From contig CAKZOW010000117.1 in the NCBI GenBank assembly GCA_937138345.1, forward strand, positions 37,572-101,571: a DNA stretch of 64,000 nucleotides. Direction: 5' to 3'. Positions 20,922-64,000 of this stretch are shown in pieces. The notes beneath the pieces are model-generated. The model was not told where the DNA came from. It saw only the letters and a list, made by a program, of their open reading frames with translations, and made no database searches. The position numbers and the translations under genes are program-made. Every line of letters begins with the position of its first letter. Within the stretch, counting starts at the first letter, position 1. This stretch comes from an uncultured archaeon (GTDB lineage Archaea; Nanobdellota; Nanobdellia; Woesearchaeales; UBA583).

Positions 20922-20944
20922 CTATTCTTAATCAAAATTAAATT

Positions 20945-45198: not shown

Positions 45199-47948
45199 AA
45201 ATAAGTGCATACCAACAAGACGTTGTAACTCCTATGTTTCAGAACGCTAAGTTAAATATTAACCTAGCGTCTCGTGTACTATTAGGTAAACAGCAACAAT
45301 TTGACGCAGCTTATCAGTCAATGCAAAATTTGAAGAAAGATTCTTTGAATATTAAATTTCTGAATAAGCAGTCTCGGGCAAAGATATATGGTTATAACGC
45401 TCAGATTTCCGCGGATTTTCCAGATATTTCTAGTGGGAATTTTGATTTGTCTAGTTCTAATGTAACTGAAAAATACATGAAGAACTTTAGAGCAATCGCT
45501 AATGACACAGAGTTAATCAAGAACTATAAGAAAGATAGAGAAGTACAAGGGTCGCTACAAGCACTAGCTAAAATGAAGGCAGAGAAAGATCCTATGAAAG
45601 CAGGTTATCATGCTATTAATGAAGCTAATTTCTTAGGTCAAGTACAACGCTACATAGATGCTACAGGTGATTTATCTGGACATAATGTAAGTTACACTCC
45701 TTATGTAGATACGGCTAGAGAAATGTCTGCTTTATCTAAGACTATACCAAAGGAAAAAAGTCAAAACTTTCAAACGACTGCTGATGGTGGTATGATTGAG
45801 ATTACCAAAGAAGGTAAAAGTCCTTCCGCAATAAGAGCAAGTTCTCAAAAGTACCACACAGGCAGAGGAGCAGGTCAGATGAGACAAGAAGCTATCTATA
45901 GTTATAACAAGATTAAAGATAACGACGCTGCAAAAACAGAAATACAGAACAATTATAATGATGTTATTGTCTCTCAAATAGCTCAGAATGATAAAATGTT
46001 AGACGCTCTGAAGGCTCGTAAACCTAAGACTGATGAAGAACAGTTCCAGATTATGCAGCAAATAGCTAATATCGAACAAGTCAATGGTCAACTAGAGAAC
46101 AAACAAGAACAATTACTAGACCCTGCTAATTTCAGAGACGATGCTCAGTGGGAAAATTGGATGACTGATTTGTATACACATCAGACTATTGAAAGAGATG
46201 TTCAATCCTATGGTCAGCAATCCATATCTTATGAGTATAAAGAAAACCCAGTATATAGGTCTGCTAGAGATTGGGAAGCTACTGTAAATACTAACGCTCC
46301 TATAAATACTTTAGAGGATATTGTTTCTCAAGGTACTGTAGCAGGAGGAACTTACGAGTCAACTTCTGAAGGAGTACTACCTTCTGATTCTTATATCAAT
46401 GGCATATTTGACCATTTAGAAGATACTCAATACAAATCAACTAATCCTTTTGAGTCAGGAGTGACAGGTGAATACGAGATGACACCTTCTGAATCTAAAG
46501 AGTACGCTACTATCCAAGGAGAAATAGATGAAGTTAAAAAAGGACGTGAAAAGTTCTCGAAGGAAAAAGTATCTATAGTAGATAATCTTAAAGGTACATA
46601 CCAGAAGTCTCGTCCTAAGAGTAATAATCCTAAGAGGAAAGACCCTGGATTCACTGCTGCACCATTATTAGACCAAATAAATAAAGGTCTTTCTGATGCT
46701 GAAAATGTACTTATGGGAGCTAATCAAGTAGAAGGTTATGAGTTAGAATTAAATAATAACGGCACTGAATTAGTTATAGGAAGTATAGAAGGATATACTT
46801 TGAAGTCTCTAGAAGCAGCGCGTAAAAATACCTCTATTGACCCTAAATACAAGAAAGAAGTAGAGAAAGAACTAGATAGAAGGTATAAGGCAATTTGGAA
46901 GGCGGAAAAAACTCTCAAAGATTATAAGTCTGATTTGAAGACTTATAATGAATCAGAGGACGGTTTTATTAAAAAGAATAAGAAACTGTCTCAAAAGTAT
47001 ATAGATAACTACAATAATAAATTACAGGCTTTAGAAGAAAAAAGAGACGCTATCACCAACATTACTACTTTAAAGGGAGATGATATGCTAGATATAGTAA
47101 TGAATGTAGATAAATATAGAGATTTTAAAAAGAACGAGTATTTAGCAGATAATGTTTATATTAAGGCAGCTAGAGATATTGTAAAGAGAAACTCTAGTAT
47201 TACTAAAGAAGAACTGAAAGAGCAAGTTAAAGCTAAAGTAAATGACCAGTCAGGTAAATATTATGGTGAGTTAGTACGTCAGAAAAGAATACAACAATAT
47301 CATCAGCACTTTTTTAGGAACGTTACTAAACCTGAACACATTAAAGCTATTTTAGCTAATCATAATACAGCTTCTTTTTATACTCCTTTTTATATAGATA
47401 TGAGAGGTAAGTCTACAGGTAAAGAACAAACGACTGCTAGACAGAATATTAAGACAGATGTTTTGATAGGCTTACGAGCTAATTTAGTTGGAGGAAAAGG
47501 TAAAATAGGTAGAGATGAAATACCACCAGATGCTATATCTACTTATAGGGTTTATAAAGGCTATACGGAAATAACGATAGATGTTACTAAAATGCCTGGC
47601 TATGATAAAGATAAAGATTATAGTAAGTCTTACAGTATAAATGGAGATAAATTTAAACTGGATTCTAAGAATAACACGATTAAATTTTACGACGCTTCTT
47701 TAGATAAGGATTTATCTCAAGACTTTATGTTAGGAATACCTACTATGGTAGATGTAGAATATGCAGATTATGTAGGTTTAAAAGGTAGAAAATTCATTCT
47801 TCAAACAGAAGATAACGAACACTATGATATTGTTTTAATAGAAAATGGTAAAGAGGTGATGAGAGCAGAAGATAAGAAAATTACAGCGGACGCTATTATC
47901 CAAGCCGGAGATAGATGGGCTAAAGGAGGAAGTTTAAGTATACAATAA
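45195..47948 (+). CDS. hypothetical large virion protein
   Basis: 917-aa ORF. Confidence 0.55.
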   Translation: MKISAYQQDVVTPMFQNAKLNINLASRVLLGKQQQFDAAYQSMQNLKKDSLNIKFLNKQSRAKIYGYNAQISADFPDISSGNFDLSSSNVTEKYMKNFRAIANDTELIKNYKKDREVQGSLQALAKMKAEKDPMKAGYHAINEANFLGQVQRYIDATGDLSGHNVSYTPYVDTAREMSALSKTIPKEKSQNFQTTADGGMIEITKEGKSPSAIRASSQKYHTGRGAGQMRQEAIYSYNKIKDNDAAKTEIQNNYNDVIVSQIAQNDKMLDALKARKPKTDEEQFQIMQQIANIEQVNGQLENKQEQLLDPANFRDDAQWENWMTDLYTHQTIERDVQSYGQQSISYEYKENPVYRSARDWEATVNTNAPINTLEDIVSQGTVAGGTYESTSEGVLPSDSYINGIFDHLEDTQYKSTNPFESGVTGEYEMTPSESKEYATIQGEIDEVKKGREKFSKEKVSIVDNLKGTYQKSRPKSNNPKRKDPGFTAAPLLDQINKGLSDAENVLMGANQVEGYELELNNNGTELVIGSIEGYTLKSLEAARKNTSIDPKYKKEVEKELDRRYKAIWKAEKTLKDYKSDLKTYNESEDGFIKKNKKLSQKYIDNYNNKLQALEEKRDAITNITTLKGDDMLDIVMNVDKYRDFKKNEYLADNVYIKAARDIVKRNSSITKEELKEQVKAKVNDQSGKYYGELVRQKRIQQYHQHFFRNVTKPEHIKAILANHNTASFYTPFYIDMRGKSTGKEQTTARQNIKTDVLIGLRANLVGGKGKIGRDEIPPDAISTYRVYKGYTEITIDVTKMPGYDKDKDYSKSYSINGDKFKLDSKNNTIKFYDASLDKDLSQDFMLGIPTMVDVEYADYVGLKGRKFILQTEDNEHYDIVLIENGKEVMRAEDKKITADAIIQAGDRWAKGGSLSIQ

Positions 47949-50797
47949 TGGAAGAACAACAACAGTATAGGAATAAAGAGATACTTGATGATGACTATAA
48001 GTTCACAGAAAGAGCTAATAGTTTAGAAGCACAGTTGGATCAATCTATTGCTAAAAATGCAATGTATATCCCTGCTTTCAAGACTTCTCAAGCTATGGCG
48101 AAGCGTTATAACAATCCTAATATTGCATTCAATCCGAATGTTAATATGGAGGAGATTTATGCAAAGAGCGACCCGTTTACATTAGGAGATGCTTTATCTA
48201 AAACTAAAAGATTGTTTACAGAACAAGTAGGACAATCTTGGATGTCTTTAGTAGATGGGGCTTTTACAGCTGTAAATACTGGTGATGTATCTAAGTTATG
48301 GGATAACGAAACTAATTCTAATGTGGCTGATGCGATGGCTGCTGTAGAAGAACTATTTCCGCAATATCAAACACAAGACCAACAGGATAATCCAGGTGCT
48401 TTAAGAAACTGGGGTAATACTTTTAAAACTTTCTTACCGTCTTCTGCTTCTGCCGGAGCTATGATGGCTGATGCAGTATTAACAGAGTTAGTATTTATAG
48501 GTGTAGGTGCTGCAACTGGGTATGGTGTAGGAGCTATTCCAGGAGCCGCTGCCGGACTTGCTAGGATAGCTGCTAGAGCACCTAAATACTTTAAGGATAT
48601 TAGAACTTTATCGAATGCTATTGCAGATGGTATAACTGCTGTAAGAGCTTGGAAAGCTGGTAGGGCAATTAAAAGTACCTTACCTAGCGGTAAAATGGTA
48701 ATGTCTGGTTTCATAGCTGCCAATGGAGAGGCAGGGTTACAGGCTAAAATGGCTTCTTCTGAGTTAATGCAATCCGAGGTTAATAAGTATATGGAGCTAT
48801 ACGGAAAACCTCCTGACCAAGCTACATTCGACCAGATAGAAGCCAATGGTAAAGAACTAGAAAAGAAAGTATGGCAAATGAATGTCCCTGTACTTATGAC
48901 TAGTAATTTAATTCAATTAGGTAATATCTTCAAAGGTACTAAACTTGCTAATGCAGGTATCACTTCATTACAACGTTCTGGAGGTAAATTAGGGTACAAT
49001 GGTTGGAAAGCAGGTAGAAAATATTTATGGAATTTAGGTAAGTCTTCTTTTTCTGAAGGTTTAGAAGAGTATTACCAAGGAGCTTCAACTTCTGCGGCTC
49101 AACAACACTTTTCTATATTTACTAAGGATTCTAAGAGTTATACAGATAGATTCTTTAAAGAGGTTTCTCATAGATGGACTACCCAAGAAGGTCAGATGGA
49201 ATTCGCTGGCGGAGCCGTTATTGGAGGTATGTTTACAGGAGTAGGCTCGCTTTATGGTACTAGGAATGATTACAACCGTTATAAACAATTAGCTAATGTA
49301 TCTAACAGTAGTACCCAAGCTCTTTATCAACAGTATGGTCAGAACGAAGCTCTTACAGACCAGATAGTTAAAGATGTAGAAGAGAATAAAATATCTAAAG
49401 CAACATTTGGAATTAATAAGAATATCTTCAATCTAGCTAAGATGCACAAGAATAACGATACTTGGGCAAGTATGGATTCTAACTTCGATGATATGAAGAG
49501 GATGGAAGTAGCTGAATTCAATGAGGTTTATGATACTAAGTTTACTCAAGCTGAAAAAGACCAAATAGTAGGACAAGTTCAGAAGAAATTCAACATGGCT
49601 TTAGAAGCTTCTGCTGTTACGGACAAGTATTTACAATACAATCCCTTGTTACAAGATCCAAGATTTAAAGAACTATCTAGGAAAGTAAAAGGTGTTGAGA
49701 CACAGAAATCTGATTTACTTTGGGGGAAAATTAAAGATTCTTTTACTGAGATGATTTATAATCAAGAGATGTTTGGGTTAGAAGAAGCTAATGCTGCTTT
49801 CACTATCGATAATGACCCAACTATTTCTAATGATATACAAGGATTGCTTAACTTTCAAGACGGAGATATTGATACTTGGTTAAAAACTAAGTTACAGGAA
49901 GCTGAAGCTATGAGTAAACCAAATGCTACTTTACTTAAAATTAAAGATGCAGGTAGTTACTCTGAGAAACTAGGAATGATTTTAAATGACTACTATAAAC
50001 TGGATGGCGAAGCAAAGGATAAGGTTAATAACTTACTGACAATCAGAGGGATGCTTAAAACAATCGGAGATACTGTAGAAGGATTTAATGATCCAGAACA
50101 ATTGTACCAAAATGCTAAAGAGGTTGCTGATTGGATGGAATACTTAGATGTTAATGGTTTGGATACTGTAGGGCAAGAAGATCAACATGCTCCTACTGAA
50201 CCTATAGAAACTCCTGTGGAAGAAGAGTCAGAACCAGAACAGAAGAGTTACAACGATGTAAGAGATGATATCGACAATGCTTCTGAAATAGGATTGGATA
50301 ATATTAGTGTTGACCATTTACCTTCCAAACAGAAGAAGGCTGCTAAAGAAGCTATTCAAACTAAGAAGGATAATATCAGAGGTGATAAGATTAAAGCTGA
50401 ATATAACGCTAAACCTAAAACTAAAGAGAACTTAGATAAGTTAATAGCAGAAGATGAATTTCCAGGAAAAACAGTTGAAGTAGAAGCTTTTAAACAAAAA
50501 GTACTTAGCAAGACTGTAGATAAGGTACTAGCTAAAATAGCTAAAGCTAAACTAGAAGATTTAGATATTGTACTAGAGTTTGGTCCTCATAATAGAAGAG
50601 TAAAAAAAGCTATACAAGCTCGAAAGAATAAACTAGCTTCTGGACAAACACAAGTAGAACAAGTTCAAGTGAATAGAAAAACAAACATAGAAAAGATTAC
50701 AATGGCTGAACAAGAAGCCGCTTATCAGAAAGGTCAGTCAATGACTCCTGAAGAAGCTCTTGCAGACTTAATGAGAATCCATAAAGAAAATTGCTAA
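47948..50797 (+). CDS. internal virion / ejection protein with Gly/Ala-rich hydrophobic segments (tape-measure- or core-protein-like)
   Basis: 949 aa. Segments such as VFIGVGAATGYGVGAIPGAAAGLARIAARA and MVMSGFIAANGEAGL are membrane-interacting glycine-zipper-like stretches. Confidence 0.45.
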   Translation: MEEQQQYRNKEILDDDYKFTERANSLEAQLDQSIAKNAMYIPAFKTSQAMAKRYNNPNIAFNPNVNMEEIYAKSDPFTLGDALSKTKRLFTEQVGQSWMSLVDGAFTAVNTGDVSKLWDNETNSNVADAMAAVEELFPQYQTQDQQDNPGALRNWGNTFKTFLPSSASAGAMMADAVLTELVFIGVGAATGYGVGAIPGAAAGLARIAARAPKYFKDIRTLSNAIADGITAVRAWKAGRAIKSTLPSGKMVMSGFIAANGEAGLQAKMASSELMQSEVNKYMELYGKPPDQATFDQIEANGKELEKKVWQMNVPVLMTSNLIQLGNIFKGTKLANAGITSLQRSGGKLGYNGWKAGRKYLWNLGKSSFSEGLEEYYQGASTSAAQQHFSIFTKDSKSYTDRFFKEVSHRWTTQEGQMEFAGGAVIGGMFTGVGSLYGTRNDYNRYKQLANVSNSSTQALYQQYGQNEALTDQIVKDVEENKISKATFGINKNIFNLAKMHKNNDTWASMDSNFDDMKRMEVAEFNEVYDTKFTQAEKDQIVGQVQKKFNMALEASAVTDKYLQYNPLLQDPRFKELSRKVKGVETQKSDLLWGKIKDSFTEMIYNQEMFGLEEANAAFTIDNDPTISNDIQGLLNFQDGDIDTWLKTKLQEAEAMSKPNATLLKIKDAGSYSEKLGMILNDYYKLDGEAKDKVNNLLTIRGMLKTIGDTVEGFNDPEQLYQNAKEVADWMEYLDVNGLDTVGQEDQHAPTEPIETPVEEESEPEQKSYNDVRDDIDNASEIGLDNISVDHLPSKQKKAAKEAIQTKKDNIRGDKIKAEYNAKPKTKENLDKLIAEDEFPGKTVEVEAFKQKVLSKTVDKVLAKIAKAKLEDLDIVLEFGPHNRRVKKAIQARKNKLASGQTQVEQVQVNRKTNIEKITMAEQEAAYQKGQSMTPEEALADLMRIHKENC

Positions 50798-53241
50798 TGT
50801 CAAAGATAACATGTACACTAAGTAAATCAGCACAGTTAGGTTTCTTGTCTTACTTGTCGGCTAAATTAAAGGATGTAAAACACTTACAACAACAGGAAGC
50901 TATTAGAGAAATAATGAAACCTTTCGATAATTACGATGAAGGAGATAAGTTCCAGTATTATTCAATACTACACGTTAACTTATCTGCTGTAACTGGCTTC
51001 TATACTAGAGAAAATTTAGGAGAAGTTCAATTGTTTAATAACAATAAACTAGATCCTACTTCTTTAACTAATATCGCTGCAAGTATTTACAGTAAAAAAA
51101 CTCCTGAAGCTATTCATGACGCTATTGAAGCTTTGTATAAGACTCCTGTAGTTGAGGAAAATGTAGGCGACCCTGTTATTAGTGGAGAATTTAATACAGT
51201 GAATTTTGAAGAAAAAAGATTAGATCTTAGAAGTCGTAAGTCTAGTAAAGAAGAAAGATTTGAGTTTATTAAAAAACTACCTGATGGTACTATAATTAAA
51301 GATCCTGAAGATGATTCTATCTATACTATAGTAGAAAATAAACCATTAAAGGATGGTAGAGAGAGTATTACTTTAACTACTTACCTAATAAAAGAAGAAG
51401 GTACGGAAAGAATAGATACTAAAATTTACAATAGAACTAGGAGAGGAGACCTTATTAAAGTGGCTTTCCCTTCAATACTACAAGAAGATAATCTAATCTA
51501 TGAAACTAATGCTGAAGTGGGTAAAACTTTTTCTACGAGTACTATCAAGGATGGTAAAAAAGATGTAGTAAAGAGTAACGATGTATTTAATGAGTCTAAA
51601 CCTCTAGGTTGGTCAGAAACCTACGAAGCTCGTAAGCAACAACATATTAAAGATATTGAAACTAAATTAGGTATCAGAGATACTAAAGGTAGAAAAGAAT
51701 ACAAAGATACTGTAGAAGCTAAAAAAGTTGCAGAGACATTAGCTAAAAAGAATCCTAAATATACATTTATTACAAAGGGTAAAACTATTGTAGCAGATGT
51801 TAAAAAGGTAGATAATAAAGCAGAGATAGGTAAATGGGTTAAACCTGGTGAAGGTACTAAGGAAGTCATGAAAAGAATAGGAGAATCTAAACACAGATTT
51901 GCTCCTTTGGCTAGACGATTATTACCTTTTATTAAAACTTCTGTACCTATAAATGTAGTAGACGCTGTGTTTTTAGGTAGGTTTGATAAAGATAAAATAT
52001 TCATATCTCACTCTGCTGCTAGGACTAAAAAAGGAGATGTTGTTACCACCCTTATACATGAAACACTTCATAGTATCACCAATGATATATTAAAAGGAAA
52101 TAGTAAAGAAGCTAGAGACTTTAAAAAGATTTATGATAATGTACTTAAACACAAAGACAAATTCTCTAATGATTACCCTTTAAAGAATATTAGAGAGTTT
52201 ATGACTGGTATTTTTACAGATGAAACCTTTATGGAGGAGTTGTCTAAGATACCTAGCACCAAGTCTACTAATGCCTGGAAAGATATTAAGAACTGGTTAG
52301 AGAAAGTATTTGGAATTAAAGGTAGTTCTTTATTAGCAGAAGCTATTGAAAGTGGTACTGGAGTTATCGCCTATAAACCTGAAAACGGGTCTACAATTGC
52401 TACAGGTTTAGGAGACTTTGGTGAAGCGATGGGTAATGCTATAAAAGGTAGTGTTGAAAAAGCTGTAGTAAGAGATGTTAAGAAGCATGGTGAAGCAGAG
52501 CGAAGAAAGAGAAATCCTAAAGAAACAGATGCTCAGTGGGCTAAAGCTCAGAAAATTATGGAAGCCTTAGCTAATAAAACAGATTTAAGATATGTTAACC
52601 TAACCAACGAACATTGGATAACTAATAAGTCTGGTGTAGAGGTATTAAATTCTTTAAAGAGTAGTACTGAGATAAAAGCGTTCTTATCGAACAGTCCTGA
52701 TAGTATGGCTTTCTTCTACGATTGGTTTAAACAACACGATAAGTTAAAAGATAAAGAAGCTGACTTAGCAGGATTTATAGGTAAACCTAAAAGTGAAGAG
52801 TTTATAATCAGAGTACATCCTAATACTCCTGTAGAGATCAGAAAACTGTTTGGTAATATAGCTAAGGTTGTAGTAAAAGGAGAAGAGGTTTTAAGTACTA
52901 CAGCACCAGAAGGTCAGATATATCTAATAAAAGGGAAGAGTGGTAACTATTTAATAAAGAGCCTTAAAAAAGACGGGAAAACTTATAAAGCTCTAAAAGT
53001 AATTGAAGGAGATAAAACTACTTATAAGACGGTTAGAATTAAGAACCTAGGTAATCCTGAACTTATTCCTATTACAAGTCAAATGAATTCCGTATCTTTG
53101 AAAGCGATAGGCGTAACTCAGGTAGAAATCCCTACAGGGAAACTAAAAAACATAGACATATTTCTAAACGAGCGTCCATTTGAAAACGGCTCGCTCTACA
53201 GAAAGTTAGAAAGTTCGGGTATAATAAACATTAAATGTTAA
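50791..53241 (+). CDS. virion protein with HExxH zincin-like metallopeptidase motif
   Basis: 816 aa. VVTTLIHETLHSITNDI carries HETLH (the HExxH motif). Confidence 0.45.
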   Translation: MLMSKITCTLSKSAQLGFLSYLSAKLKDVKHLQQQEAIREIMKPFDNYDEGDKFQYYSILHVNLSAVTGFYTRENLGEVQLFNNNKLDPTSLTNIAASIYSKKTPEAIHDAIEALYKTPVVEENVGDPVISGEFNTVNFEEKRLDLRSRKSSKEERFEFIKKLPDGTIIKDPEDDSIYTIVENKPLKDGRESITLTTYLIKEEGTERIDTKIYNRTRRGDLIKVAFPSILQEDNLIYETNAEVGKTFSTSTIKDGKKDVVKSNDVFNESKPLGWSETYEARKQQHIKDIETKLGIRDTKGRKEYKDTVEAKKVAETLAKKNPKYTFITKGKTIVADVKKVDNKAEIGKWVKPGEGTKEVMKRIGESKHRFAPLARRLLPFIKTSVPINVVDAVFLGRFDKDKIFISHSAARTKKGDVVTTLIHETLHSITNDILKGNSKEARDFKKIYDNVLKHKDKFSNDYPLKNIREFMTGIFTDETFMEELSKIPSTKSTNAWKDIKNWLEKVFGIKGSSLLAEAIESGTGVIAYKPENGSTIATGLGDFGEAMGNAIKGSVEKAVVRDVKKHGEAERRKRNPKETDAQWAKAQKIMEALANKTDLRYVNLTNEHWITNKSGVEVLNSLKSSTEIKAFLSNSPDSMAFFYDWFKQHDKLKDKEADLAGFIGKPKSEEFIIRVHPNTPVEIRKLFGNIAKVVVKGEEVLSTTAPEGQIYLIKGKSGNYLIKSLKKDGKTYKALKVIEGDKTTYKTVRIKNLGNPELIPITSQMNSVSLKAIGVTQVEIPTGKLKNIDIFLNERPFENGSLYRKLESSGIINIKC

Positions 53242-53633
53242 AGACTAGAAACTGGTTTCCAGAACATACGGAAATCTATACAACCCAAGGATGGGTAAAT
53301 ATTAGTATAATAGAGAAAAAAGACTTTTCATTAGTAGGATACGAAAGTGAAGAGATTGTTGAATGTAAATTAAAAGAATTTAATAAACATTCCTTTGAAG
53401 GTCCTATCCTTAGTTATAAAGCAAAAGATATATTTTTAGAAGGTCTGTATATAGAGAACTACATAACTAGATACAGAGCCACATTAGACCTACCTAAAAT
53501 AAGGTACTCACATTACAACGGTTATCTGTATAATATAGTCACAACTACAGGAAATTTTATTATCAGAAGCCTGAAAGGAAAACATAACAATAACGATTAT
53601 AATATAGTAAAATGCCAAATAAGTGTAAAATAG
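53235..53633 (+). CDS. hypothetical protein
   Basis: 132-aa ORF overlapping the start of the giant gene. Confidence 0.45.
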   Translation: MLKTRNWFPEHTEIYTTQGWVNISIIEKKDFSLVGYESEEIVECKLKEFNKHSFEGPILSYKAKDIFLEGLYIENYITRYRATLDLPKIRYSHYNGYLYNIVTTTGNFIIRSLKGKHNNNDYNIVKCQISVK

Positions 53634-56600
53634 AGGTTACTCACCCTTTACTTAAACAAGTAATTACTGGAGCAGATACAGTTGAAGAAATACTAACAGC
53701 TTTAAATACTACAGATAAGTTCTTAACTAGAGCTGGAAGGTCTATTAGTAGTAAAGACTTTGAGTTCCTAGTAACAGAAGAACAAGATATTGTAGTCAAT
53801 ATTGGAGGAATAGATGTACCTTTAGTAGAGTTCCAAGAATTCACAGATAAACCTATTCCAGTAATTATTCCTCAGATAATTATTCCAGAGGAAATCAAAC
53901 ACATTGATTCTGATACTACATTAAAGGAAGATAACTTTTCTGCTATTAAATGGGAATCAGGACTTGCTTTAGCTAATAAAGATACCGTAGGTTTTACTAA
54001 TGAGATTAGTCAAGAACAGCGTTCTACATTCAGAGGACAGTTGATGGAGAAGCTAACTACTCGTCCTAAAGCTAAATTGATTTTAATAAAAGATTCTGAT
54101 GCTAATTACTCTCAAACAGAAGAAGAAAGAGGTTTCAAAGCTGATGGTCATGTAGCTATAGTTGTAGAAAACTTTGAAGAAGGATTATCTTTAACTGAAC
54201 TACTAAAGAGAGTTCCTGACTACGCTAAACTCAATGGGAAACCTTTCTTACTCCATACAGAATTCTCTGCTAAGAATAATACTTTTGATGAAACAGGTTT
54301 TGGTAAACGTGACCATGAGAAACGCTTAGACATCTATACTGAGAAAACAGGTAAAACTAGAGAACAAGCTAAAGCGCACTTCGATAAAGAGTTTAGAGAT
54401 TGGAAAAGAGCTGCAACTGAAATAGAAGAAAACTCTTACACCGTCCTTGAGATAAAGTCTATCTCTGAAGGTAATATTGGTAAATACAATAAACACAAAG
54501 CTCCTCTATCTCCAGAGATGGTGAATAGAGTAAGCGAAATTGAGATTGTAGACGGACATGTATTTGTAAATTTTGACGAGACTTTACCTACTAAGGAGAA
54601 GATTAAAACTAAGGTAAGGGTAATTGGTAGTAAAGTAAGTAACCACGAGAAAGGAGTTCTATTCAAATTACTAGATAGTTATACTACCCAGATTCCAGAA
54701 GAGTTTGTAGCTTACTTAGTATTATTGTATGGTAAAAGAGTGTCATTGAAACCTAATAACTTATCATTCAAAAGAAAAGGAGATAAGATTCAAATCAGTT
54801 ATGACCAAGGAGGTAAAATATTCTCTATAAAAACAGACCAGAACTACAAAGATTTAGAACAAAGAAAAGAAATACTCAAGACCATCCTAGAGAACATTCC
54901 AAGAAGTATACCTTTTGATATGGTAATCGCCTCACAGAATGGAGATACTATTGATAGATACTTGTCTGAATTAAAAATCAATGATACAGACTTACGTGTA
55001 CCAGATGTAGATGATTTAGTAAAAGGTACTACTACTCTACAAGATTATTTACTAGATGCTGTATATCCTGTACAAATGGATACGAATCATTATAAGGTAA
55101 ACGGTCAGAAGCAATCCAGTTATAAACCAATCAATAGATATGCTTACTATAACATGGATGGTAAAGTACACAAAGACCTTAGTAGAGAACTAGAAACTAA
55201 AGTAAATGAGAAGTTCGAAGCTAGTGGTATAGATACTGTTATTCTTACTGAAGGTGAGATGCGAGAAAAAGCTGCTGAATGGAATAAGGAAGATGGTACT
55301 AACCATCCTGTTACATATGGGCGGTACAAAAATGGTGTAGTTTATATTACTAAAACAGCACCAAAACACGTAGTATTAGAAGAAAGAATACATGCTCTTA
55401 CAGTAGCAGCTATTAAAGAAGAAGATTTAAATGAAAAAGCTGAGATAGTACAAGTAGTTAACGAACTTAGAACTCGTGTAGCTAAACTAGAAAACGGGGC
55501 TTTAAAAGATAAATGGAATGCGACTATTGGTACTGATGGTAAAGTTACTGTAGAACATGTAGCAGAACTTACTGGTAGAGGTATGTCAGATCCTAATATG
55601 GTAGAGTTCTTAAAGAAAAACCAATTAGGAGATTCATTCTATGCTAAGATTAAAAACTGGATAAATGCTTTAATCTCCAAAGTAACAGGTGTAACTTTCT
55701 ACGATACTATAGAAGGATATACTTATAAGTTAATGGATACTAAGATTGAAGAAGATTTAGATGAAGATATATTTGATCCATTAGGAGGTTTCTTTTCTTA
55801 TGAACAATTAAATGAACCTCCTGTAAAAGATATTCATGACCAGTTGAACTACCATTTCCTAAATATATTCTTGAAAAAGAAAAAGATAACATTATCTGAT
55901 TTATTTGAAAAAGATTTACCTAAAGGTATATTCAAAGAGTATAAAGCTCAGTTAAAGTCAAAAGCTAAGACAAAGTTTTTAGTAAAAGATGAAAAAAGTT
56001 TTGATAAATGGTCTAAAAAATTCTTTGCTAAGGAAGAAGTAGAAGAAGTTTCTGAAATTGAAAGACTAGAATCAGATGATTTGTCTGAAGTAATTAACGA
56101 AACTCACTCGACTAAAAGTTCACAAGAAAGGATTAGCAAGAAGATTAAAGCAATTATAGAAACAATGCCTAAAGTTGATGAGAATGGTAAAGCTGTTCGT
56201 TATCCTTCAGGTATTCCTATGGCTGCTAATATCTCTAGTACTCTTTACAAACTTATCAAGAATTATGGAGGTGTAATCGACATCAACGTACTGGCTAAGA
56301 ATATAGCTAAAGCTGCTTACAAGAAAGATGATAAAAATAGGAATGTAGCCAATCAAGATGATATTTTAATACTAGCACTTGCTTTAGGTATTAAACCGGA
56401 TGGTAGTTATCAGAAGACTCCTTTGATGTACTCTTTTGTAACAGGTATGCAGTTGTTTGAATTACCTGCTTATAAAGCAGTAGAAAGTGATATAGCTTCT
56501 TTTGTATTTAAGGAAAGCGGTACTAACACTAAAGCGCTTAAAAAGGAATGGGATAGTGCTTTTAGAGAGAATAGGTCAGGAAGATTTGATAAAGACTTTA

Positions 56601-59600
56601 ATCCTACAGAAGAATATGTAGCAGCAATTAGACAAGCTGTAGATAACAAAGATAGATATACTCTATTCGAGTTACTTAACATCGAAACAGACGCTAATAC
56701 TACACTTAACTGGCAGTTTATAGAGTCTAGGATATTTGGGTATAGACCTCGTAATATAGTAGGGTTAAAAGGCTTTGATAAAGCATCTAACAACCCATTA
56801 GCTTCTCCTATATCTGATATTTTCAGTTCAGGTGAGAATAAGAACTTACTAAAGGAAGCTGCTGTTTTATCTGGTCATAGAGATACTGTAATGTACTTGA
56901 ATAGTGCAGGTAAAATGCAGAACAACTATAGTTTACCTAACTCTGTCATCATGATGAATAGTATTTTCCAAACCTATACCAGCCTATTAGCTAAGGATGG
57001 TGAAGTCGCCGGACATGAGGAGTTGTTGTATGGTATGCTTAGGAATTTTAATTCTCCTAAGTTTAAGGCTACTGATTTGTATAAGATGTTAACGCATCCT
57101 AATCCAGCAAGAAGGTATAAGATTGAGATTATTAACGTGGATGGCTATACTGATTCAAGAAAAGGTGAAGACATAAAAGATACTACTTCTAAGTTACAGA
57201 ATTTCAGTTGGTTACGTCAACAACACTTAAACTGGAAAGAAGGATTTGTAGAGTTTATGCGTACTGGAACAGGTAGTTCTGCTTGGGGTTACAGAGTAGT
57301 AAGTCCTAAAGGTAAAGCTCATAAATGGGTCACAAATGTTAAAGAAGCTCAGACTATATTTGGTAACTTTCTACTAGGAGAATTAGCTCAGTGGCAAAAA
57401 GTAAAAGATAAGACCAACTACAAATACGACCCGTTTACAATAAGCGCTTATTTAAGCGAAGACTTAAAAACGAAGTTAAAAGAAATGGAATTCGATGGTA
57501 CTCTTGGAGAGTATACAGACGAAGTTTTAGCAGAATTGAATGAAGCTTTATCAGGTGTATTTAGAGATACAGAACAACTCTATGCAGATTACGGGATAAC
57601 TGATTTAGAAAAAGTAGGAATGTTTGGTGTTAATTACAAGATACACCAGATATACTCTACTATGATGTTCTATGGTGATTTAAACTGGTTTGGTAAAAAA
57701 TTCTTTAAGCGTTCGCCACTAGCTGTTTCTACTGGTACAGGTAATACAGTTACAGAAGGATTATATGAAACGATTACACATGATTTAAAATCTGTATTTA
57801 CACCTAATACTAAAGGCTCGCTTACAGCTAAAGTATTAGCAGTAAAAGATATTAAAGCAGATTATAGTCCTAAAAAGTTAAAAGAATTCAAATCTAATGT
57901 AGCTAGTTCTGTTGAGAGTTATTTTAAAAACTCTAATATACCTGATCACTTGAAGAAAGATTTTAAAGATGCTTTAATGGAATCTTTGAACTCTTATAAC
58001 GATATCGAAGTAGCAGATGGTCAGTCTTGGGTATCTTTAGATTTAGCTAAATCTATGTTAGTTACTATAGACAAATGGGAGACTAATGGTTTACAAAAGA
58101 TGTATGACTATGAGGTAGCTTTCCTTAAAATGTGGAAACAAGCTCCTGAGAATCTTAAAGAGAGATACCGTGGTAATAATGATATTAATCTAGAATCAGC
58201 TTTAGCTAAGTTAAAACTAACTGAATCTGATATTAAGTTACTATTGAATAAACCTAAAGGAAACTGGACTTCTATGAAGTGGCAGTACTTCGGACCTATC
58301 AAGTCAAACGCTGATGTAGAGGCTTACAATCCATTAGTGTCACTTAAAACATCATTTGCTCCTATTATACCATCTGCTGTTGTAGGTACTAATGCAGAGC
58401 AGTTTATCGGACTTATGTACAAGGATGGTCATGATATCATTACGATTAAGTCTGCAATGAAAACAGGTATCGCAGAACATGGTGCTGCATCTTTAGCTCC
58501 ATTCTATACAAAGGATGGTATACAACAATTGTCTAATGAAGCTGACAGAGCTTATGAAATATACCTACCATACTTAAAAGAACAGTTAGAAACTAACACG
58601 AAAGTAAAGAAGGTGAATCTACTGGCGTCCCAGTTTAGAAAGTTACTTTATGCAGATACTTTAGTTCCTACTTTCGATGGAGATGCTTTTATAGGAAATC
58701 AATGGTTATCTCCAGATGTTGAAAAGTTATTCAATGAGTTCCTAAACATTCAAGAGCAGATAGTAGAAGTCCAAAAGGTTAAACTACTAGAAGAACTTAA
58801 ACTAGAAAGAATAGGTAAAGAGTATATCATTACTGATAGAACTCACCTAATTAAAACTATAAAAGATGAATTAGAACGCCAAGACAAAGGTGACAAAGGC
58901 CTATATGATTTGCTAGAAGCAATTAATAAAGACGATAATAATTTTGATTATTCCGGTGCCACACAAATGTTGGAGAACTTTGTAGGAGGTTTAATTAAGA
59001 AGAGATTGTCTAATATCAAGCTTCCAGGTAATGCTCTTATTCTTAAAGCATCTCCGACCACAGAAAAACTAGATTCAGAAGGATTTGGATTGAAATATTA
59101 CGGTTATGAGAAAGCTGAAGAATTTGAAGGATTTTGGACAAGAAAAGAGGTAGCTAAAGATACAGAAAAAGTTTATCTATTTGGAGATAATACAGCCGAT
59201 AGAGCAACTAAATATGTTCCTTCAAAAACTCAAGCTGTTATTAGAGGTTTAGATAATGCTATAGGTATAGATACTAAAAAGAATAGAGGTACAGGAAAAG
59301 ATTCTTATTTCACAGATAAAGATTTTGATGAGTTTAAAGACCAAGTAGATAAAGCTATTCAAACTGCTAAAGATAGTGGTAAAACTATTGTTATACCTAA
59401 AGATGGTATTGGTACAGGAAAAGCTATGCTTGCTAAGAAAGCTCCTAAACTTTATAAGTACTTAACAGAAGAGTTAAATAAATTAAAAGAACCTAAAGTA
59501 ACAAAAGCAGAAGGTAAAATATCTATATCTCAAGGAGAGTTCGGAAACTTACTTAAAAGAAAGGATGTAATAGAAAATGCATTATCAAATAGAGAAGATG

Positions 59601-62600
59601 ATTTACTAAGGTCTTTAAATGAGTTAATGGCTCAAGGAAAGATACCAGAGGATTTGATCACTATATTTGGTTATCGTATTCCTACATCTGGACTTAACTT
59701 AATGGATAGTTATATTATCAAAGAATTTTTACCTTATAATGAAGGTTCAGTTATTATTTTACCACCAGAAGCTGTTATTAAAGCAGGTGAGGATTATGAT
59801 ATTGATAAAAAGAACTTCTATTTCCCGTCTATCAGTGCGGATGGTACCAGGTTACCTGTACTTACAGAAAAACAATTTACTAAGAACAAGGAGGAGTTAC
59901 AAGAACGTGAAGAAGCTCTTAGCGAGCGTTATAAAGAGTTAACTAACTCAGTGTTAGAAGTTGAAGGAGAAGGTCTTACAGGTAAGGAAATAGAGCAATT
60001 AAGAGAAGATTTAAGATTTGACAACGAACTAGAAAAACTAGATATAGTTGATGAGTACGCTTTAGTAAAAGAACAGTTAAAAACTTACAAGAATTATTTA
60101 GATTACAGGACTAAAACACTTACAAACAAGTTAATTCAAAATGCTGTAGCAGCTACTTTAGTACCAGAAAGGTTCTTTAGTTTAGTTACTCCGGTTAATA
60201 ATAAACACGTAGAAGATAGTTTAAAAGAATTTGGTCAATCAGTAGAACCTACACCTTGGGAAACTACTAACATTAGTACGTCTGCTTCTAAGAGAGAAGA
60301 TATGGTACTTAACGGTCAAGCATTGACAGGTTTCGTAGCTACAGATGCAGTAGCCTTACAGGTAGTATTAAAGAAAGGATTACGGGTTAATAAGGACTCT
60401 AAACTAGGTAAAACTGTTTACCCATTATTAACAGAAGAAGAAGTTGCCAGAATGGATAGAGGAGATTACTTAGATTTATCTAATCCTCTTATGTTCGATG
60501 GTATGCTTAAATCTGATGTATTTAACCAATATACACAAGCTACAATTGATGCAGCTAATTCTCCATTACTTTCTTCAGTAAATATTACTAAGGACACCAT
60601 ACCTGTAATGAGCTGGTTAACTATGGTAGGAATTCCTGTTAAAAGAATTGGGATGTTTCTAACTCAACCTATCCTTAGAGAACGTCAAAGACTACTAGGA
60701 CAAGGAATGAAGAGTACTGCTGTATATACTAAGCAAGGTAAAGCTTTATTAACTCAAATGGTTAATGAAGGTACATTAAAAAGTACTAAGCAATTCTTTG
60801 GAGGTAAAGACCATAACGGTAACGATATTGGTAAGAAGAGTATCAACTGGGCTAAAGTAGGTGCTTATATTAATAGTGAGAGTAGTACAGGTGACGGTAA
60901 AACTAAATACCCTACGCTTACCAACAAGTCTGCGGCAATTGAAAAAAAGACTGGACGTAAAATCCATTCGAGTGAAGCTCCATTTGAGCAGTTGTATGTA
61001 CTATGGTTATTCCATAAACACCAGAATGAAAGTCTAGAATTCCTACAGTTGAAAATGGCTATGGGAGTGGATACCAATCCTGATAGAAACTCGTTGAGTA
61101 TAGCACTTAGAGAAAAAGCTATTGGAGATATTAACTCTGATAAAAATCCTTTCATTGACAAGACTACTATCAACAAGATTCTTAAAAAATCTGAGGTTTC
61201 TCCGTACTATCAACCAGAAATTACAGATGCTGTACTTAAAGCGTTAAATCCTATACGTTCTAACGCTACGTTTGTGAGTAAATTCTTACAAGAGTTTGGT
61301 GATAGTCGAATGAAATACATGGGTCGTAATAGACGTGAAAAATTTATCCGTACTGCTACCAATGATTTCTTGGATTTCTTAGTGAAAACTAAAGTCTACA
61401 TTGACGGTAAACCATTTAATCAACACTACAACTCTATTAGAAAAGATATTTACTCTAGATTTAGAGCCGTAGCTGGACCAACTTTACTTAGATATACATC
61501 TGTTAAAAAGGATGGTATGATTGCTTTGAATTACGAAGCTGTTGAAGATGGATTTACAGATACTTTAAAATATGAATTGTCTTTAATTAAAGATAGCGAC
61601 CCTGTATTATATAGAGATTTACTAGTTGCTTTCCATGCTCAGTATGGTTATAACTTTACTATTGATACTTTACAAACTATTATCCCTAAACTAGATTTCT
61701 ATAATTTAGTTAAGGAGGACTTAGCAGGTGTAAATGTAGATAATGAGGTTAAATACTTTATAACTGCTTGGAAGAGTGAGAATGAATCCTACATCAAAGG
61801 TAAGAAGAATGTAACCACAAAGTTCTTAAAAGTTAAACGAGGAGCTACTTCTAGTACAGTTAGTAGTAATACTAAACTACGTCAACAAGTAAAACAAGGA
61901 GCTGTTAATATCGACAAAGGTATTTACTCTAATCCTTTCTTAGGAATGGCTGACTCTAAAGTTGCTAAAGATATGTACAAAGATTGGTTAAATGGAAGTA
62001 ATAACCCTGTAGCTGCTTATATCGTATCTGATAATAAACTTGTAAACCAAGAGAGAAATTACTTAGGAGAAGTTGAAATAGATGTCGATGGGCAAATACA
62101 GGAAGTAACTTTTTTCCAGTATGGTAACGCTCGAATTATAGAACTAGAGAATGGACAATTGGTATCAGAAAAATCTAGTAAAATAATAGCAGATTCTTGG
62201 GAACACTTGGAAAACCATGTTCCTTTGACTAGAGAATTAGAAGATGAAGGATTTAAACTAGAAGGAGATTTCAGAACTCTAAACGATATAGAGCCTTCTA
62301 GCAGAGAAAAGTTATTAGAAGAGATTAAATCTGGTAAATTAGATAAAACAGAATTTGTTAGTACAAGTACTGATAACCATGCAAGTATACTAATCGACAA
62401 AATTAAGGATAGAAATAAGGTAGCAGCTACTTCTCTTAAACAAAATGACGATACCAAGACTTATGTAGTTACAGAAGGTAAAGGAGGTAAAGGAGGTAAT
62501 AAGTTAGTAATACCTAAGTTCAATAGTATTCAAGATGTAAAAGACTTTGTAGATACTATTCCAGAGGAGGTTGTATTTCCTACTAGAGGATTAGCAGTTA

Positions 62601-64000
62601 CTAAATCTTATCAGAAAGACTTTAACCAATTGGTAAAAGAGAAATTCAATTATACTAACCCTATTGAGTCAGCTTACTCTTTCACTTACAACGGTACTAC
62701 AGTTCCCACACCTTTTGAGTTGTCTAAAGAACAATCCATAGCATTAGAGGAATTGATAGATCATGTTGAATCTGGTACAGAAGTTGACTGGACTTTGAGT
62801 GCAAAAGGAGGATGTTTAGCTAAAGGTACTAAGGTAGTAATGTTCGATGGTACTTTTAAGAATGTTGAAGATGTAGAAGTAGGTGATTTACTTATGGGTC
62901 CAGATTCTACTCCTAGAACAGTGCTTGATTTAAGAAGAGGTCGAGAGCAAATGTACTGGGTAAGACAAACTAAAGGAGATGATTACAGAGTCAATGAGAG
63001 ACATATTTTATCTTTAAAAAAGGTACATCCTGCTACTTATAGTAGGGTTGTTGCAGGTAAAGGTAAAAGAGTTAAAACAAATAAAGTACTTAAACCTAAA
63101 AGAACAGAAACTTTAAACATTTCTGTGAAGGATTATCTGAATTACCCTACTAGTAAGAAACATATTATGGGTTATATGACAGGAGTAGAGTTCTCTAAAA
63201 AAGAAACTACTATAGATCCTTATTATCTAGGGCTATGGTTGGGAGATGGGTCTACTAAAAATATAAACCAAATATCCAATATTGACAAACCTATATTAGA
63301 TTATTTATTTAGTAAATGGGAACATTATAAGTTTGACGGTAGGTGTACCTATACTTCTACAGGTAATAAGTACAATGAAGAGTTTAAAAAGTTATACAAC
63401 TTAACTAATGCTGGTAAATTAAAAGAAAAGTATATACCTACTAGTTACCTTTATAATACAAGGGAAATACGTTTACAATTACTAGCAGGATTAATAGACA
63501 GTGATGGTCACTTAGCTAATAAAACTTATGAAATAACTCAAAAACATAAAAAATTAGCGCACCAAATAGCTTATCTATGTAGAAGTTTGGGACTTAGAAC
63601 ATACATACGTCCTAAAAAGGTTAAAATTAGAGAAGGAGATGTTAGGGTTTATTGGAGAATTACCTTCAATGGTACTCCAGATGTTCCTACTAAATTACCT
63701 AGGAAACAATGTGATAAATTATCTGTATTCAAAGAACGTAAACATACTAGTGTTAAGTTGGAGAAGGATGTAGTAGATGATTATTACGGGTTCACTTTAG
63801 ATAAGGATCATTTATTCTTACTAGAGGATTTTACAGTAACTCACAACACCGGAAAAACGTCAATAATCGGTGTCTTAGGACAATACCTTAAAAGTGCAGA
63901 GATTCTTTATCTTGCTCCCACCCATGCAGTTACAGTGGAGTTAGCTATAGCGACTTTACCTTTTGGTAATACGAATTTCCCTATAACTATTCCTTCTTCT
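53612..64000 (+). CDS. giant multidomain virion/polyvalent-type protein, at least 3463 codons, 3'-partial. Its C-terminal RecD/Pif1-like SF1 helicase domain is interrupted by an intein
   Basis: I translated it by hand from ATG 53612 (preceded by in-frame TAA at 53600) in one frame without stops to the window end. It is not in the ORF track because no stop lies inside the window. Internal landmarks: a Rossmann-like segment VYLFGDN...GIDT...IVIPKDGIGTGKAML (about 59162-59460); a DUF4326-like segment GAVNIDKGIYSNPFLG...YKDWL (about 61898-61990); the helicase Walker A split as ...LSAKGG / TGKTSIIGVLGQYLKSAEILYLAPTHAVTVEL. Confidence 0.8.
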   Translation, partial: MPNKCKIEVTHPLLKQVITGADTVEEILTALNTTDKFLTRAGRSISSKDFEFLVTEEQDIVVNIGGIDVPLVEFQEFTDKPIPVIIPQIIIPEEIKHIDSDTTLKEDNFSAIKWESGLALANKDTVGFTNEISQEQRSTFRGQLMEKLTTRPKAKLILIKDSDANYSQTEEERGFKADGHVAIVVENFEEGLSLTELLKRVPDYAKLNGKPFLLHTEFSAKNNTFDETGFGKRDHEKRLDIYTEKTGKTREQAKAHFDKEFRDWKRAATEIEENSYTVLEIKSISEGNIGKYNKHKAPLSPEMVNRVSEIEIVDGHVFVNFDETLPTKEKIKTKVRVIGSKVSNHEKGVLFKLLDSYTTQIPEEFVAYLVLLYGKRVSLKPNNLSFKRKGDKIQISYDQGGKIFSIKTDQNYKDLEQRKEILKTILENIPRSIPFDMVIASQNGDTIDRYLSELKINDTDLRVPDVDDLVKGTTTLQDYLLDAVYPVQMDTNHYKVNGQKQSSYKPINRYAYYNMDGKVHKDLSRELETKVNEKFEASGIDTVILTEGEMREKAAEWNKEDGTNHPVTYGRYKNGVVYITKTAPKHVVLEERIHALTVAAIKEEDLNEKAEIVQVVNELRTRVAKLENGALKDKWNATIGTDGKVTVEHVAELTGRGMSDPNMVEFLKKNQLGDSFYAKIKNWINALISKVTGVTFYDTIEGYTYKLMDTKIEEDLDEDIFDPLGGFFSYEQLNEPPVKDIHDQLNYHFLNIFLKKKKITLSDLFEKDLPKGIFKEYKAQLKSKAKTKFLVKDEKSFDKWSKKFFAKEEVEEVSEIERLESDDLSEVINETHSTKSSQERISKKIKAIIETMPKVDENGKAVRYPSGIPMAANISSTLYKLIKNYGGVIDINVLAKNIAKAAYKKDDKNRNVANQDDILILALALGIKPDGSYQKTPLMYSFVTGMQLFELPAYKAVESDIASFVFKESGTNTKALKKEWDSAFRENRSGRFDKDFNPTEEYVAAIRQAVDNKDRYTLFELLNIETDANTTLNWQFIESRIFGYRPRNIVGLKGFDKASNNPLASPISDIFSSGENKNLLKEAAVLSGHRDTVMYLNSAGKMQNNYSLPNSVIMMNSIFQTYTSLLAKDGEVAGHEELLYGMLRNFNSPKFKATDLYKMLTHPNPARRYKIEIINVDGYTDSRKGEDIKDTTSKLQNFSWLRQQHLNWKEGFVEFMRTGTGSSAWGYRVVSPKGKAHKWVTNVKEAQTIFGNFLLGELAQWQKVKDKTNYKYDPFTISAYLSEDLKTKLKEMEFDGTLGEYTDEVLAELNEALSGVFRDTEQLYADYGITDLEKVGMFGVNYKIHQIYSTMMFYGDLNWFGKKFFKRSPLAVSTGTGNTVTEGLYETITHDLKSVFTPNTKGSLTAKVLAVKDIKADYSPKKLKEFKSNVASSVESYFKNSNIPDHLKKDFKDALMESLNSYNDIEVADGQSWVSLDLAKSMLVTIDKWETNGLQKMYDYEVAFLKMWKQAPENLKERYRGNNDINLESALAKLKLTESDIKLLLNKPKGNWTSMKWQYFGPIKSNADVEAYNPLVSLKTSFAPIIPSAVVGTNAEQFIGLMYKDGHDIITIKSAMKTGIAEHGAASLAPFYTKDGIQQLSNEADRAYEIYLPYLKEQLETNTKVKKVNLLASQFRKLLYADTLVPTFDGDAFIGNQWLSPDVEKLFNEFLNIQEQIVEVQKVKLLEELKLERIGKEYIITDRTHLIKTIKDELERQDKGDKGLYDLLEAINKDDNNFDYSGATQMLENFVGGLIKKRLSNIKLPGNALILKASPTTEKLDSEGFGLKYYGYEKAEEFEGFWTRKEVAKDTEKVYLFGDNTADRATKYVPSKTQAVIRGLDNAIGIDTKKNRGTGKDSYFTDKDFDEFKDQVDKAIQTAKDSGKTIVIPKDGIGTGKAMLAKKAPKLYKYLTEELNKLKEPKVTKAEGKISISQGEFGNLLKRKDVIENALSNREDDLLRSLNELMAQGKIPEDLITIFGYRIPTSGLNLMDSYIIKEFLPYNEGSVIILPPEAVIKAGEDYDIDKKNFYFPSISADGTRLPVLTEKQFTKNKEELQEREEALSERYKELTNSVLEVEGEGLTGKEIEQLREDLRFDNELEKLDIVDEYALVKEQLKTYKNYLDYRTKTLTNKLIQNAVAATLVPERFFSLVTPVNNKHVEDSLKEFGQSVEPTPWETTNISTSASKREDMVLNGQALTGFVATDAVALQVVLKKGLRVNKDSKLGKTVYPLLTEEEVARMDRGDYLDLSNPLMFDGMLKSDVFNQYTQATIDAANSPLLSSVNITKDTIPVMSWLTMVGIPVKRIGMFLTQPILRERQRLLGQGMKSTAVYTKQGKALLTQMVNEGTLKSTKQFFGGKDHNGNDIGKKSINWAKVGAYINSESSTGDGKTKYPTLTNKSAAIEKKTGRKIHSSEAPFEQLYVLWLFHKHQNESLEFLQLKMAMGVDTNPDRNSLSIALREKAIGDINSDKNPFIDKTTINKILKKSEVSPYYQPEITDAVLKALNPIRSNATFVSKFLQEFGDSRMKYMGRNRREKFIRTATNDFLDFLVKTKVYIDGKPFNQHYNSIRKDIYSRFRAVAGPTLLRYTSVKKDGMIALNYEAVEDGFTDTLKYELSLIKDSDPVLYRDLLVAFHAQYGYNFTIDTLQTIIPKLDFYNLVKEDLAGVNVDNEVKYFITAWKSENESYIKGKKNVTTKFLKVKRGATSSTVSSNTKLRQQVKQGAVNIDKGIYSNPFLGMADSKVAKDMYKDWLNGSNNPVAAYIVSDNKLVNQERNYLGEVEIDVDGQIQEVTFFQYGNARIIELENGQLVSEKSSKIIADSWEHLENHVPLTRELEDEGFKLEGDFRTLNDIEPSSREKLLEEIKSGKLDKTEFVSTSTDNHASILIDKIKDRNKVAATSLKQNDDTKTYVVTEGKGGKGGNKLVIPKFNSIQDVKDFVDTIPEEVVFPTRGLAVTKSYQKDFNQLVKEKFNYTNPIESAYSFTYNGTTVPTPFELSKEQSIALEELIDHVESGTEVDWTLSAKGGCLAKGTKVVMFDGTFKNVEDVEVGDLLMGPDSTPRTVLDLRRGREQMYWVRQTKGDDYRVNERHILSLKKVHPATYSRVVAGKGKRVKTNKVLKPKRTETLNISVKDYLNYPTSKKHIMGYMTGVEFSKKETTIDPYYLGLWLGDGSTKNINQISNIDKPILDYLFSKWEHYKFDGRCTYTSTGNKYNEEFKKLYNLTNAGKLKEKYIPTSYLYNTREIRLQLLAGLIDSDGHLANKTYEITQKHKKLAHQIAYLCRSLGLRTYIRPKKVKIREGDVRVYWRITFNGTPDVPTKLPRKQCDKLSVFKERKHTSVKLEKDVVDDYYGFTLDKDHLFLLEDFTVTHNTGKTSIIGVLGQYLKSAEILYLAPTHAVTVELAIATLPFGNTNFPITIPSS
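62813..63847 (+). mobile_element. intein (345 aa) with a two-motif LAGLIDADG homing endonuclease, inserted in the P-loop of the giant protein's helicase domain
   Basis: N-terminal splice block CLAKGTKVVMFDGTFKNVEDVEVGDLLMG; block B-like YRVNERHILSL; LAGLIDADG motifs YYLGLWLGDGS and LLAGLIDSDGHL; C-terminal block FLLEDFTVTHN followed by Thr at +1. The flanking exteins rejoin to GGTGKTS (Walker A). Confidence 0.85.

Follow-up and report, generated by a model that had tools for sequence, protein, structure and literature searches.

In a 64,000-nucleotide stretch of contig CAKZOW010000117.1 (positions 37,572 to 101,571 of the forward strand; hereafter the window), the Walker A loop of a RecD/Pif1-type helicase domain, located near the C-terminus of a giant phage protein, is split between GG and TGKTS by an insert of 345 amino acids (aa). 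This insert is very probably a class-1 intein of the PI-SceI type that splices and that homes by means of the LAGLIDADG endonuclease it carries. A LAGLIDADG intein had been proposed at this position in a preliminary description of the sequence, and domain scans, alignment to intein-less homologues, a structure model and a fold search now agree with that proposal.

The insert occupies 62813-63847 on the + strand, begins CLAKGTK and runs from CLAKGTKVVMFDG to FTVTHN. It is placed in frame between KGG and TGKTS of the Walker A loop; the + strand frame is free of stop codons across 62600-64000, and the other two frames are full of them. The interval 62807-63862, originally assigned to the intein, corresponds to these boundaries together with the flanking GG and TGKTS codons. 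Every block named at that time is present, and all of the residues expected to take part in splicing are retained (Cys1, the block-B His64, His344, Asn345 and Thr+1). Block A, CLAKGTKVVMFDG, with the Cys1 nucleophile, lies at 62813-62851, the DVEVGDLL block at intein residues 20-27, and block B, RVNERHILSL with His64, at 62987-63016. The two LAGLIDADG motifs follow, YYLGLWLGDGS at residues 137-147 (63221-63253) and LLAGLIDSDGH at residues 223-233 (63479-63511); their cores, LGLWLGDG and LAGLIDSDG, contain the catalytic acids Asp145 and Asp231, and they align with LLGLWIGDG and FLAGLIDSDGY of PI-SceI, respectively. Blocks F and G, VDDYYGFTLDKDHLFLLED and FTVTHN, lie at 63773-63847, where block F reads VDDYYGFTLDKDH and block G ends in His344 and Asn345; they align with DDYYGITL...VVVHN of PI-SceI. 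All of these features are on the + strand. In an alignment of 61 intein relatives, C1, H64, D229, D231, H344 and N345 are invariant, and D145 and N61 are at least 90% conserved.

Searches with the intein sequence gave concordant results, with matches much too strong to be due to chance. The Pfam family Hom_end_hint matches with E = 2.1e-24, positions 1-228 of its 228-position profile being spread over intein residues 1-344, and the middle of the intein additionally matches Hom_end (4.6e-10) and LAGLIDADG_3 (2e-9). Among sequences in the Protein Data Bank (PDB), the best matches were PI-SceI and the VMA1 precursor, at 3.8e-21, with fungal Prp8 inteins next (1e-13), and the alignment with PI-SceI takes in both LAGLIDADG motifs and the C-terminal DDYYG...HN block. 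A hidden Markov model (HMM) of the intein family found this segment as its single match in a six-frame scan of the window, with E = 1.1e-142; the same model, run in six frames over the window and the remainder of the source contig (L007), revealed no second intein.

An AlphaFold2 model, built with the 61-sequence intein alignment as input, has a mean predicted local distance difference test score (pLDDT) of 95.9 and a predicted template modelling score (pTM) of 0.91. As modelled, the N- and C-terminal segments come together in a predicted HINT fold, with the putative endonuclease domain between them. When this model was compared with the PDB by Foldseek, PI-SceI was again the best match (E 8e-25, template modelling (TM) score 0.74-0.76 on the query), followed by the archaeal TliVMA and PhoVMA inteins and then by PI-PfuI. 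The Prp8 mini-inteins fit the HINT part of the model (TM 0.82-0.84 on the target), and I-DmoI fits the endonuclease part.

The empty site and the helicase domain

Four giant homologues, recovered by an exhaustive protein search, lack the insert and have a P-loop in its place: KGG-AGKTS in P0122, SAG-VGKTA in P0127, and AG-TGKTT in both P0169 and P0187. In P0122 the loop reads WTLEAKGG-AGKTSIIG and in P0127 LQGSAG-VGKTAVIG. The alignment defines the empty site precisely, also at the DNA level, where it falls at 19759|19760 of L006, the syntenic locus that encodes P0122; 63 of the 90 flanking bases there are identical to the window. Because the segment is precisely missing from four giant homologues and from a syntenic contig, the possibility that the 345 aa form a native domain of the helicase was ruled out. 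The residue at +1 is Thr in the window; the two closest empty alleles have Ala or Val there. This fits the need for a nucleophile at +1; T, S or C is found there in the 120 best of 3,296 intein relatives. When the spliced 800-aa extein was used in a word-index protein search, no match was returned, not even the protein itself, and giant proteins seem to escape that index.

The extein sequence that flanks the insert is as first reported. When the 345 aa are removed in silico, a continuous AAA_30 match is obtained (1.7e-17, profile positions 2-178 of 191), together with matches to AAA_19 (5.9e-9) and PIF1 (2.6e-8); the unspliced, window-only fragment gives a weak AAA_30 match (7.9e-4). The N-extein part of the helicase lies at 62720-62812 (+) and reads FELSKEQSIALEEL...WTLSAKGG, its last residues being the first half of Walker A. 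Its limits follow from the start of AAA_30 in the spliced sequence and from the alignment with P0122, P0127, P0169 and P0187. The translated C-extein starts at 63848 with Thr+1, continues to the window end at 64000 (+) with TGKTS, which completes Walker A, and with LAPTH, which is motif Ia, and the helicase goes on past the window. The motifs AKGGTGKTS, LAPTH, VVDEASMV, GDYEQ, SFRQGE, KSQGS and ASRAK occur in that order, those past the window being seen in the full-length protein (P0121, locus L007). On these motifs we assign the domain to superfamily 1B (SF1B), as a predicted RecD/Pif1/Dda-like helicase. The earlier suggestion that the helicase is probably important to the phage is a reasonable one, because all SF1B motifs are intact.

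The giant host protein and its phage

The open reading frame (ORF) that contains the intein extends over 53612-64000 (+) and is cut off by the end of the window; the open frame starts at 53603, its first ATG is at 53612, and it has at least 3,462 codons within the window. Its remainder was found on the source contig k127_662283 (ENA ERZ928327 / ERR2094169, 127,896 bp), which comes from a marine aquaculture metagenome (project PRJEB22134) and was located via a neighbouring 132-aa gene. There, the ORF ends at the equivalent of window position 65986, with the reading frame intact over 12.4 kb, and encodes a product of 4,124 aa (P0121) that is identical to the window translation across 3,462 aa. 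The product after splicing would be 3,779 aa.

A large central part of this protein resembles the virion RNA polymerase of crAss-like phages. In a tblastn search, the giant protein matched g066, which is the RNA polymerase gene of Cellulophaga phage phi14:2, as well as many Bacteroides/crAss phages, and hhalign aligned the giant-family profile to the g066 product, gp66, with a probability of 100% (E 8e-71, 1,530 columns, gp66 residues 288-2030). This places a putative two-barrel polymerase core of the crAss type at giant residues ~908-2748 (56333-61855, +). Within it, a DYDID motif at residues 2061-2065 (59792-59806, +) aligns over the gp66 catalytic motif DFDID, residues 1361-1365 (GEDYDIDK against GSDFDIDK by BLASTP). 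In gp66, mutants in which each aspartate of this motif was changed to alanine have been tested; the enzyme is packaged in the virion and ejected, and in vitro it transcribes only single-stranded or denatured DNA (bioRxiv 10.1101/2020.03.07.982082). Our polymerase assignment is based on tblastn, BLASTP and profile alignment, not on structure, and when PDB sequences were searched with the polymerase region by phmmer, no match was obtained even at E = 1. Beyond the gp66-like core, the giant protein has an N-terminal extension of ~900 aa, an inserted DUF7831 domain and a C-terminal region of ~1,000 aa that contains the helicase, with the intein inside it. Scans of Pfam, PHROGs and PDB sequences found no family in the N-terminal ~1,800 aa or in residues 2,600-3,030.

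We therefore describe the host protein, as judged by sequence, as a homologue of the crAss-type virion RNA polymerase with a C-terminal helicase. At least five giant proteins of 3,554-4,481 aa (P0121, P0122, P0127, P0169 and P0187) combine the polymerase core with an SF1B helicase at the C-terminus, and four of these fusions are without an intein. A literature search, limited as a negative, found no description of a crAss-type virion polymerase that is interrupted by an intein or fused to a helicase.

The DUF7831 domain (PF25176, 2.3e-29) occupies giant residues 1837-1953 (59120-59470, +), within the polymerase-homologous stretch, and is also found in Rhizobium, Sinorhizobium and Roseobacter phage proteins. 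P0122 (3,963 aa, encoded at L006 10001-21892) is without it and has instead a match to a 2OG-Fe(II) oxygenase (PF13532); from the sequences, one domain seems to have been exchanged for another within the giant polymerase protein. Identity between P0122 and the protein studied here is 62% across the query and 53% across the C-terminal 867 aa.

The window itself is phage DNA, with a terminase at 22598-24682, a portal at 24682-27273 and a capsid protein at 28375-30072. The terminase is closest to those of Crassvirales, with 26-29% identity to sequences from gut, termite-symbiont, Flavobacterium and Cellulophaga sources; judged by these relatives, the phage probably infects a marine member of the Bacteroidota. 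The giant gene shares its strand with the terminase, portal and capsid genes and follows them, and it is from this position and from homology that we infer that the giant protein is packaged in the virion. Its neighbourhood is syntenic with L006: upstream ORFs of 557, 917, 949, 814-816 and 132 aa in the window (43525-53633, +) correspond to ORFs of 561, 973, 949, 805 and 133 aa, and a downstream ORF of 1,649 aa (L007 22375-27324) corresponds to one of 1,650 aa. These six flanking ORFs have essentially no family matches, with size and order conserved in L006, and they may encode tail proteins or ejected 'cargo' proteins.

The preliminary description also counted two classes of homing endonuclease, and, by sequence, the window does appear to encode both, the LAGLIDADG intein and a free-standing GIY-YIG protein of 290 aa at 9326-10198 (+), which matches the Pfam family at 1.3e-12 and phage homing-endonuclease PHROGs at 1.5e-29. 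Elsewhere in the window, a 432-aa protein (13847-15145, +) with a dATP/dGTP diphosphohydrolase N-terminal domain (PF18909, 1.1e-12) adjoins a PNK3P polynucleotide kinase-phosphatase homologue (12724-13569, +), a pair that may hint at nucleotide-pool manipulation or modified DNA. In the regions 5555-5627 (-) and 19372-20922 (+), ARAGORN reported tRNA genes for Thr, Met, Asp and Cys(GCA) and, on the minus strand, an odd one for Cys(ACA). An Rfam tRNA at 19372-19440 was missed by ARAGORN, and the tRNA at 20846-20922 was not reported by Rfam.

The intein family and the case for a mobile element

A search for relatives of the native intein segment gave 3,296 matches. In the best 120 of these, which are 45-57% identical to it, the intein always falls within the P-loop (Walker A), and the hosts are PhoH, RecD-like, AAA+, DnaB, RecA and other proteins. 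Two registers of insertion are seen in this set, G|[TSC]GK[ST] in PhoH, RecD-like, AAA+ and other proteins, and GK|T in DnaB and RecA-like proteins; intein similarity separates the registers weakly, identity being ~50-53% within and 46% between them. Among GenBank phages, the family is present in 792 records, including Salmonella phage genes annotated as 'intein containing helicase precursor'. All of this accords with published surveys, in which the Lys|Thr site of the P-loop is called a 'classic' intein insertion and phage TerL inteins are competent for splicing and endonuclease activity (PMC5050341), and in which intein hosts include DnaB, RecA, PhoH, UvrD and RecD (PMC4760082). Inteins are also recorded in crAss-like phage TerL, and are frequent in some crAss-like lineages (PMC7886860). 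By its sequence, the intein described here is an ordinary member of a very common family at a typical site.

The closest intein among the matches listed, 57% identical in protein and 63% in DNA, interrupts P0001, a stand-alone RecD-like helicase encoded in the replication region of a different phage contig from the same aquaculture project (ERR2094173; L003 10001-12301). The exteins of the P-loop relatives, RecD-like and others, are not orthologous to the helicase studied here. Recent transfer from P0001 was ruled out by the 63% nucleotide identity and by the unrelated flanks. In the phage that encodes P0001, a LAGLIDADG-like ORF (L003 20739-21650) adjoins the DNA polymerase A gene. Another relative, P0043 (785 aa, on a 55 kb JGI contig), has two inteins in one Walker A loop: G|SGK holds a mini-intein and GK|ST, three residues further on, a full LAGLIDADG intein, so that both registers are occupied.

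It had been considered unusual to find an intein in a virion-module protein rather than in a replication gene. This view holds in part. Among the 150 family representatives listed, the polymerase region is present in 81, DUF7831 in 98 and the helicase in five, and the intein is found in one only, the protein described here; among helicase relatives in IMG/VR, none of 80 has an intein, and 25 of the 80 lie inside long ORFs. The IMG/VR scan was based on alignment, and one of its two seed patterns needs an unbroken P-loop, which biases it towards empty sites. In IMG/VR, a search with the single helicase sequence found no relative, and there was no exact copy of a 40-mer taken from the end of the window; GenBank phages gave no megablast match to 60000-64000. 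Rarity within the sampled host family is therefore borne out. The rest of the claim is not, because the giant protein is a predicted polymerase-helicase and the intein thus resides in a nucleic-acid enzyme, the usual kind of intein host. Only the host protein is unusual, not the intein.

The sequence and the model suggest the following course of events. The gene would be translated as a single precursor of 4,124 aa in which the ATP site of the helicase is split, and which is presumably inactive as a helicase before splicing. An N-S acyl shift at Cys1 would generate a thioester, and attack on this thioester by the hydroxyl of Thr+1 (transesterification) would give a branched intermediate. Cyclization of Asn345, assisted by His344, would then release the intein, and an O-N shift would create a normal peptide bond, restoring the P-loop AKGGTGKTS in a polymerase-helicase of 3,779 aa. 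The freed intein, of ~40 kDa, would act as a LAGLIDADG endonuclease using Asp145 and Asp231; in a co-infection it would cut the P-loop-coding DNA of intein-less alleles, and repair would copy the intein in. Both the splicing and the endonuclease activity are what we infer from sequence and model. We consider the intein best described as a selfish element that occupies a conserved site, and not as an adaptation of the phage.

Several observations weigh against a mobile, homing intein. No allele of this phage that is nearly identical but lacks the intein was found, which leaves current mobility unproven. The closest intein, P0001, is a distant one, at just 57% protein and 63% DNA identity and with dissimilar flanks. 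The G+C content of the intein, 31.5%, is like that of the host gene, 33.3%, which points to long residence and allows for a decayed endonuclease. Finally, the nearest empty alleles have Ala or Val at +1, and would thus need to acquire a nucleophile codon for splicing to occur after invasion. In a realistic, if clearly less probable, alternative, the intein splices but its endonuclease is inactive or no longer has a target, leaving a fixed and vertically inherited remnant that no longer moves. Such a history would accommodate the ameliorated base composition, the absence of a close donor or of a sampled intein-less allele of the same phage, and the single intein allele among the 150 representatives and none among the 80 IMG/VR relatives. 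However, the two LAGLIDADG motifs are undamaged and conserved, catalytic Asp residues included, the high-confidence model of the endonuclease domain resembles PI-SceI and I-DmoI, and degenerate inteins usually shrink to mini-inteins such as that in P0043. We thus prefer the mobile intein.

A regulatory role for the intein, as a conditional-splicing switch that keeps the helicase off until a redox or metal cue is received, for example after assembly or ejection, appears quite improbable. Insertion into the P-loop would guarantee an inactive precursor helicase, gp66, the polymerase homologous to the host protein, is packaged and ejected, and P-loop DnaB inteins with Cys1 are reported to respond to oxidative stress and zinc (PMC6195587 and PMC7360933). 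Nevertheless, no evidence specific to such a switch was found here, homologues work without the intein, and the same intein family occurs in many unrelated ATPases, as expected of a selfish element. It is very improbable that the insert no longer splices and simply inactivates a dispensable helicase, given that every splicing residue is kept (C1, H64, H344, N345 and T+1), as are the helicase motifs on both sides and the frame over 12.4 kb. We give scarcely any credence to readings in which there is no intein at all, the 345 aa being a native accessory domain, an assembly chimera or a group I intron ORF. The segment is precisely missing from the four giant homologues and the syntenic contig, and HINT halves flank the endonuclease in frame. 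A group I or II intron ORF was ruled out, there being no intron family match in Rfam, and so was an assembly artefact, because the identical 4,124-aa protein is recorded on five contigs.

A further proposal, unlikely as it stands, concerns the host protein. The C-terminal helicase would be coupled to the virion RNA polymerase in one ejected polypeptide and would unwind its template, and splicing of the P-loop would then be required for maturation, possibly in response to a cue, and would time early transcription. The unwound template, which polymerases of the gp66 and QDE-1 types need, would come from the helicase, gp66 being active in vitro on single-stranded or denatured DNA only.

For intein biology, the element adds one more host to a long list, and illustrates how one intein family colonizes the Walker A loops of unrelated ATPases in two registers. 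Its exact boundaries allow the 4,124-aa gene to be annotated correctly, as precursor, intein and mature protein, and also define the target site for a new LAGLIDADG enzyme. The more useful by-product is the recognition of a marine Crassvirales-like phage with a gp66-type polymerase fused to an SF1B helicase. Because gp66 needs a single-stranded template in vitro, such fusions offer a natural setting in which to ask how double-stranded DNA becomes accessible to crAss-type polymerases; by analogy with gp66, fusion to a helicase may solve the problem of template access.

Comparison with known systems

PI-SceI, the VMA1 intein of Saccharomyces cerevisiae (PDB 1VDE, 1LWS and 1EF0), is the best match to the window intein by both sequence and fold. 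The two share the Hom_end_hint plus LAGLIDADG architecture, blocks A, B, F and G, and catalytic Asp residues that align, but they are only ~22-24% identical, PI-SceI being longer (454 versus 345 aa) and having Cys rather than Thr at +1. Their hosts also differ, a eukaryotic V-ATPase subunit for PI-SceI and a helicase domain of a phage for the window intein. PI-SceI likewise interrupts a Walker A loop, its insertion point being one residue ahead of GKT (GAFG|CGKT).

Closer relatives, of the same family and 42-57% identical, are the P-loop inteins of the RecD-like proteins P0001 and P0008, PhoH P0002, AAA+ P0020, DnaB P0052, RecA-like P0075 and Salmonella phages. The RecD-like, PhoH and AAA+ inteins use the register of the window intein, G|[TSC]GK[ST], whereas the DnaB and RecA members use GK|T. 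Their hosts are stand-alone proteins of 570-810 aa, mostly from replication or repair modules, in contrast to the giant polymerase-helicase described here. The TerL inteins of mycobacteriophages (Kelley et al., 2016; PMC5050341) are likewise in the P-loop of a phage ATPase, their host being a terminase rather than a polymerase-helicase. The 'Hint-Hop' inteins of crAss-like phage TerL (Yutin et al., 2021; PMC7886860) are also inserted in an ATPase domain, and an intein in the RNA polymerase block is unmentioned in the portion of that survey consulted.

For the host protein, the closest known counterpart is gp66 of phi14:2, the single match found in that phage by tblastn with the first 3,000 giant residues. 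The polymerase cores align, the DxDxD motif is matched, and in both phages the gene has large neighbours and lies after the structural genes. With 2,180 aa, gp66 is much the smaller protein; the giant protein adds to it the long N-terminus, DUF7831 and the C-terminal region in which the helicase and its intein are found.

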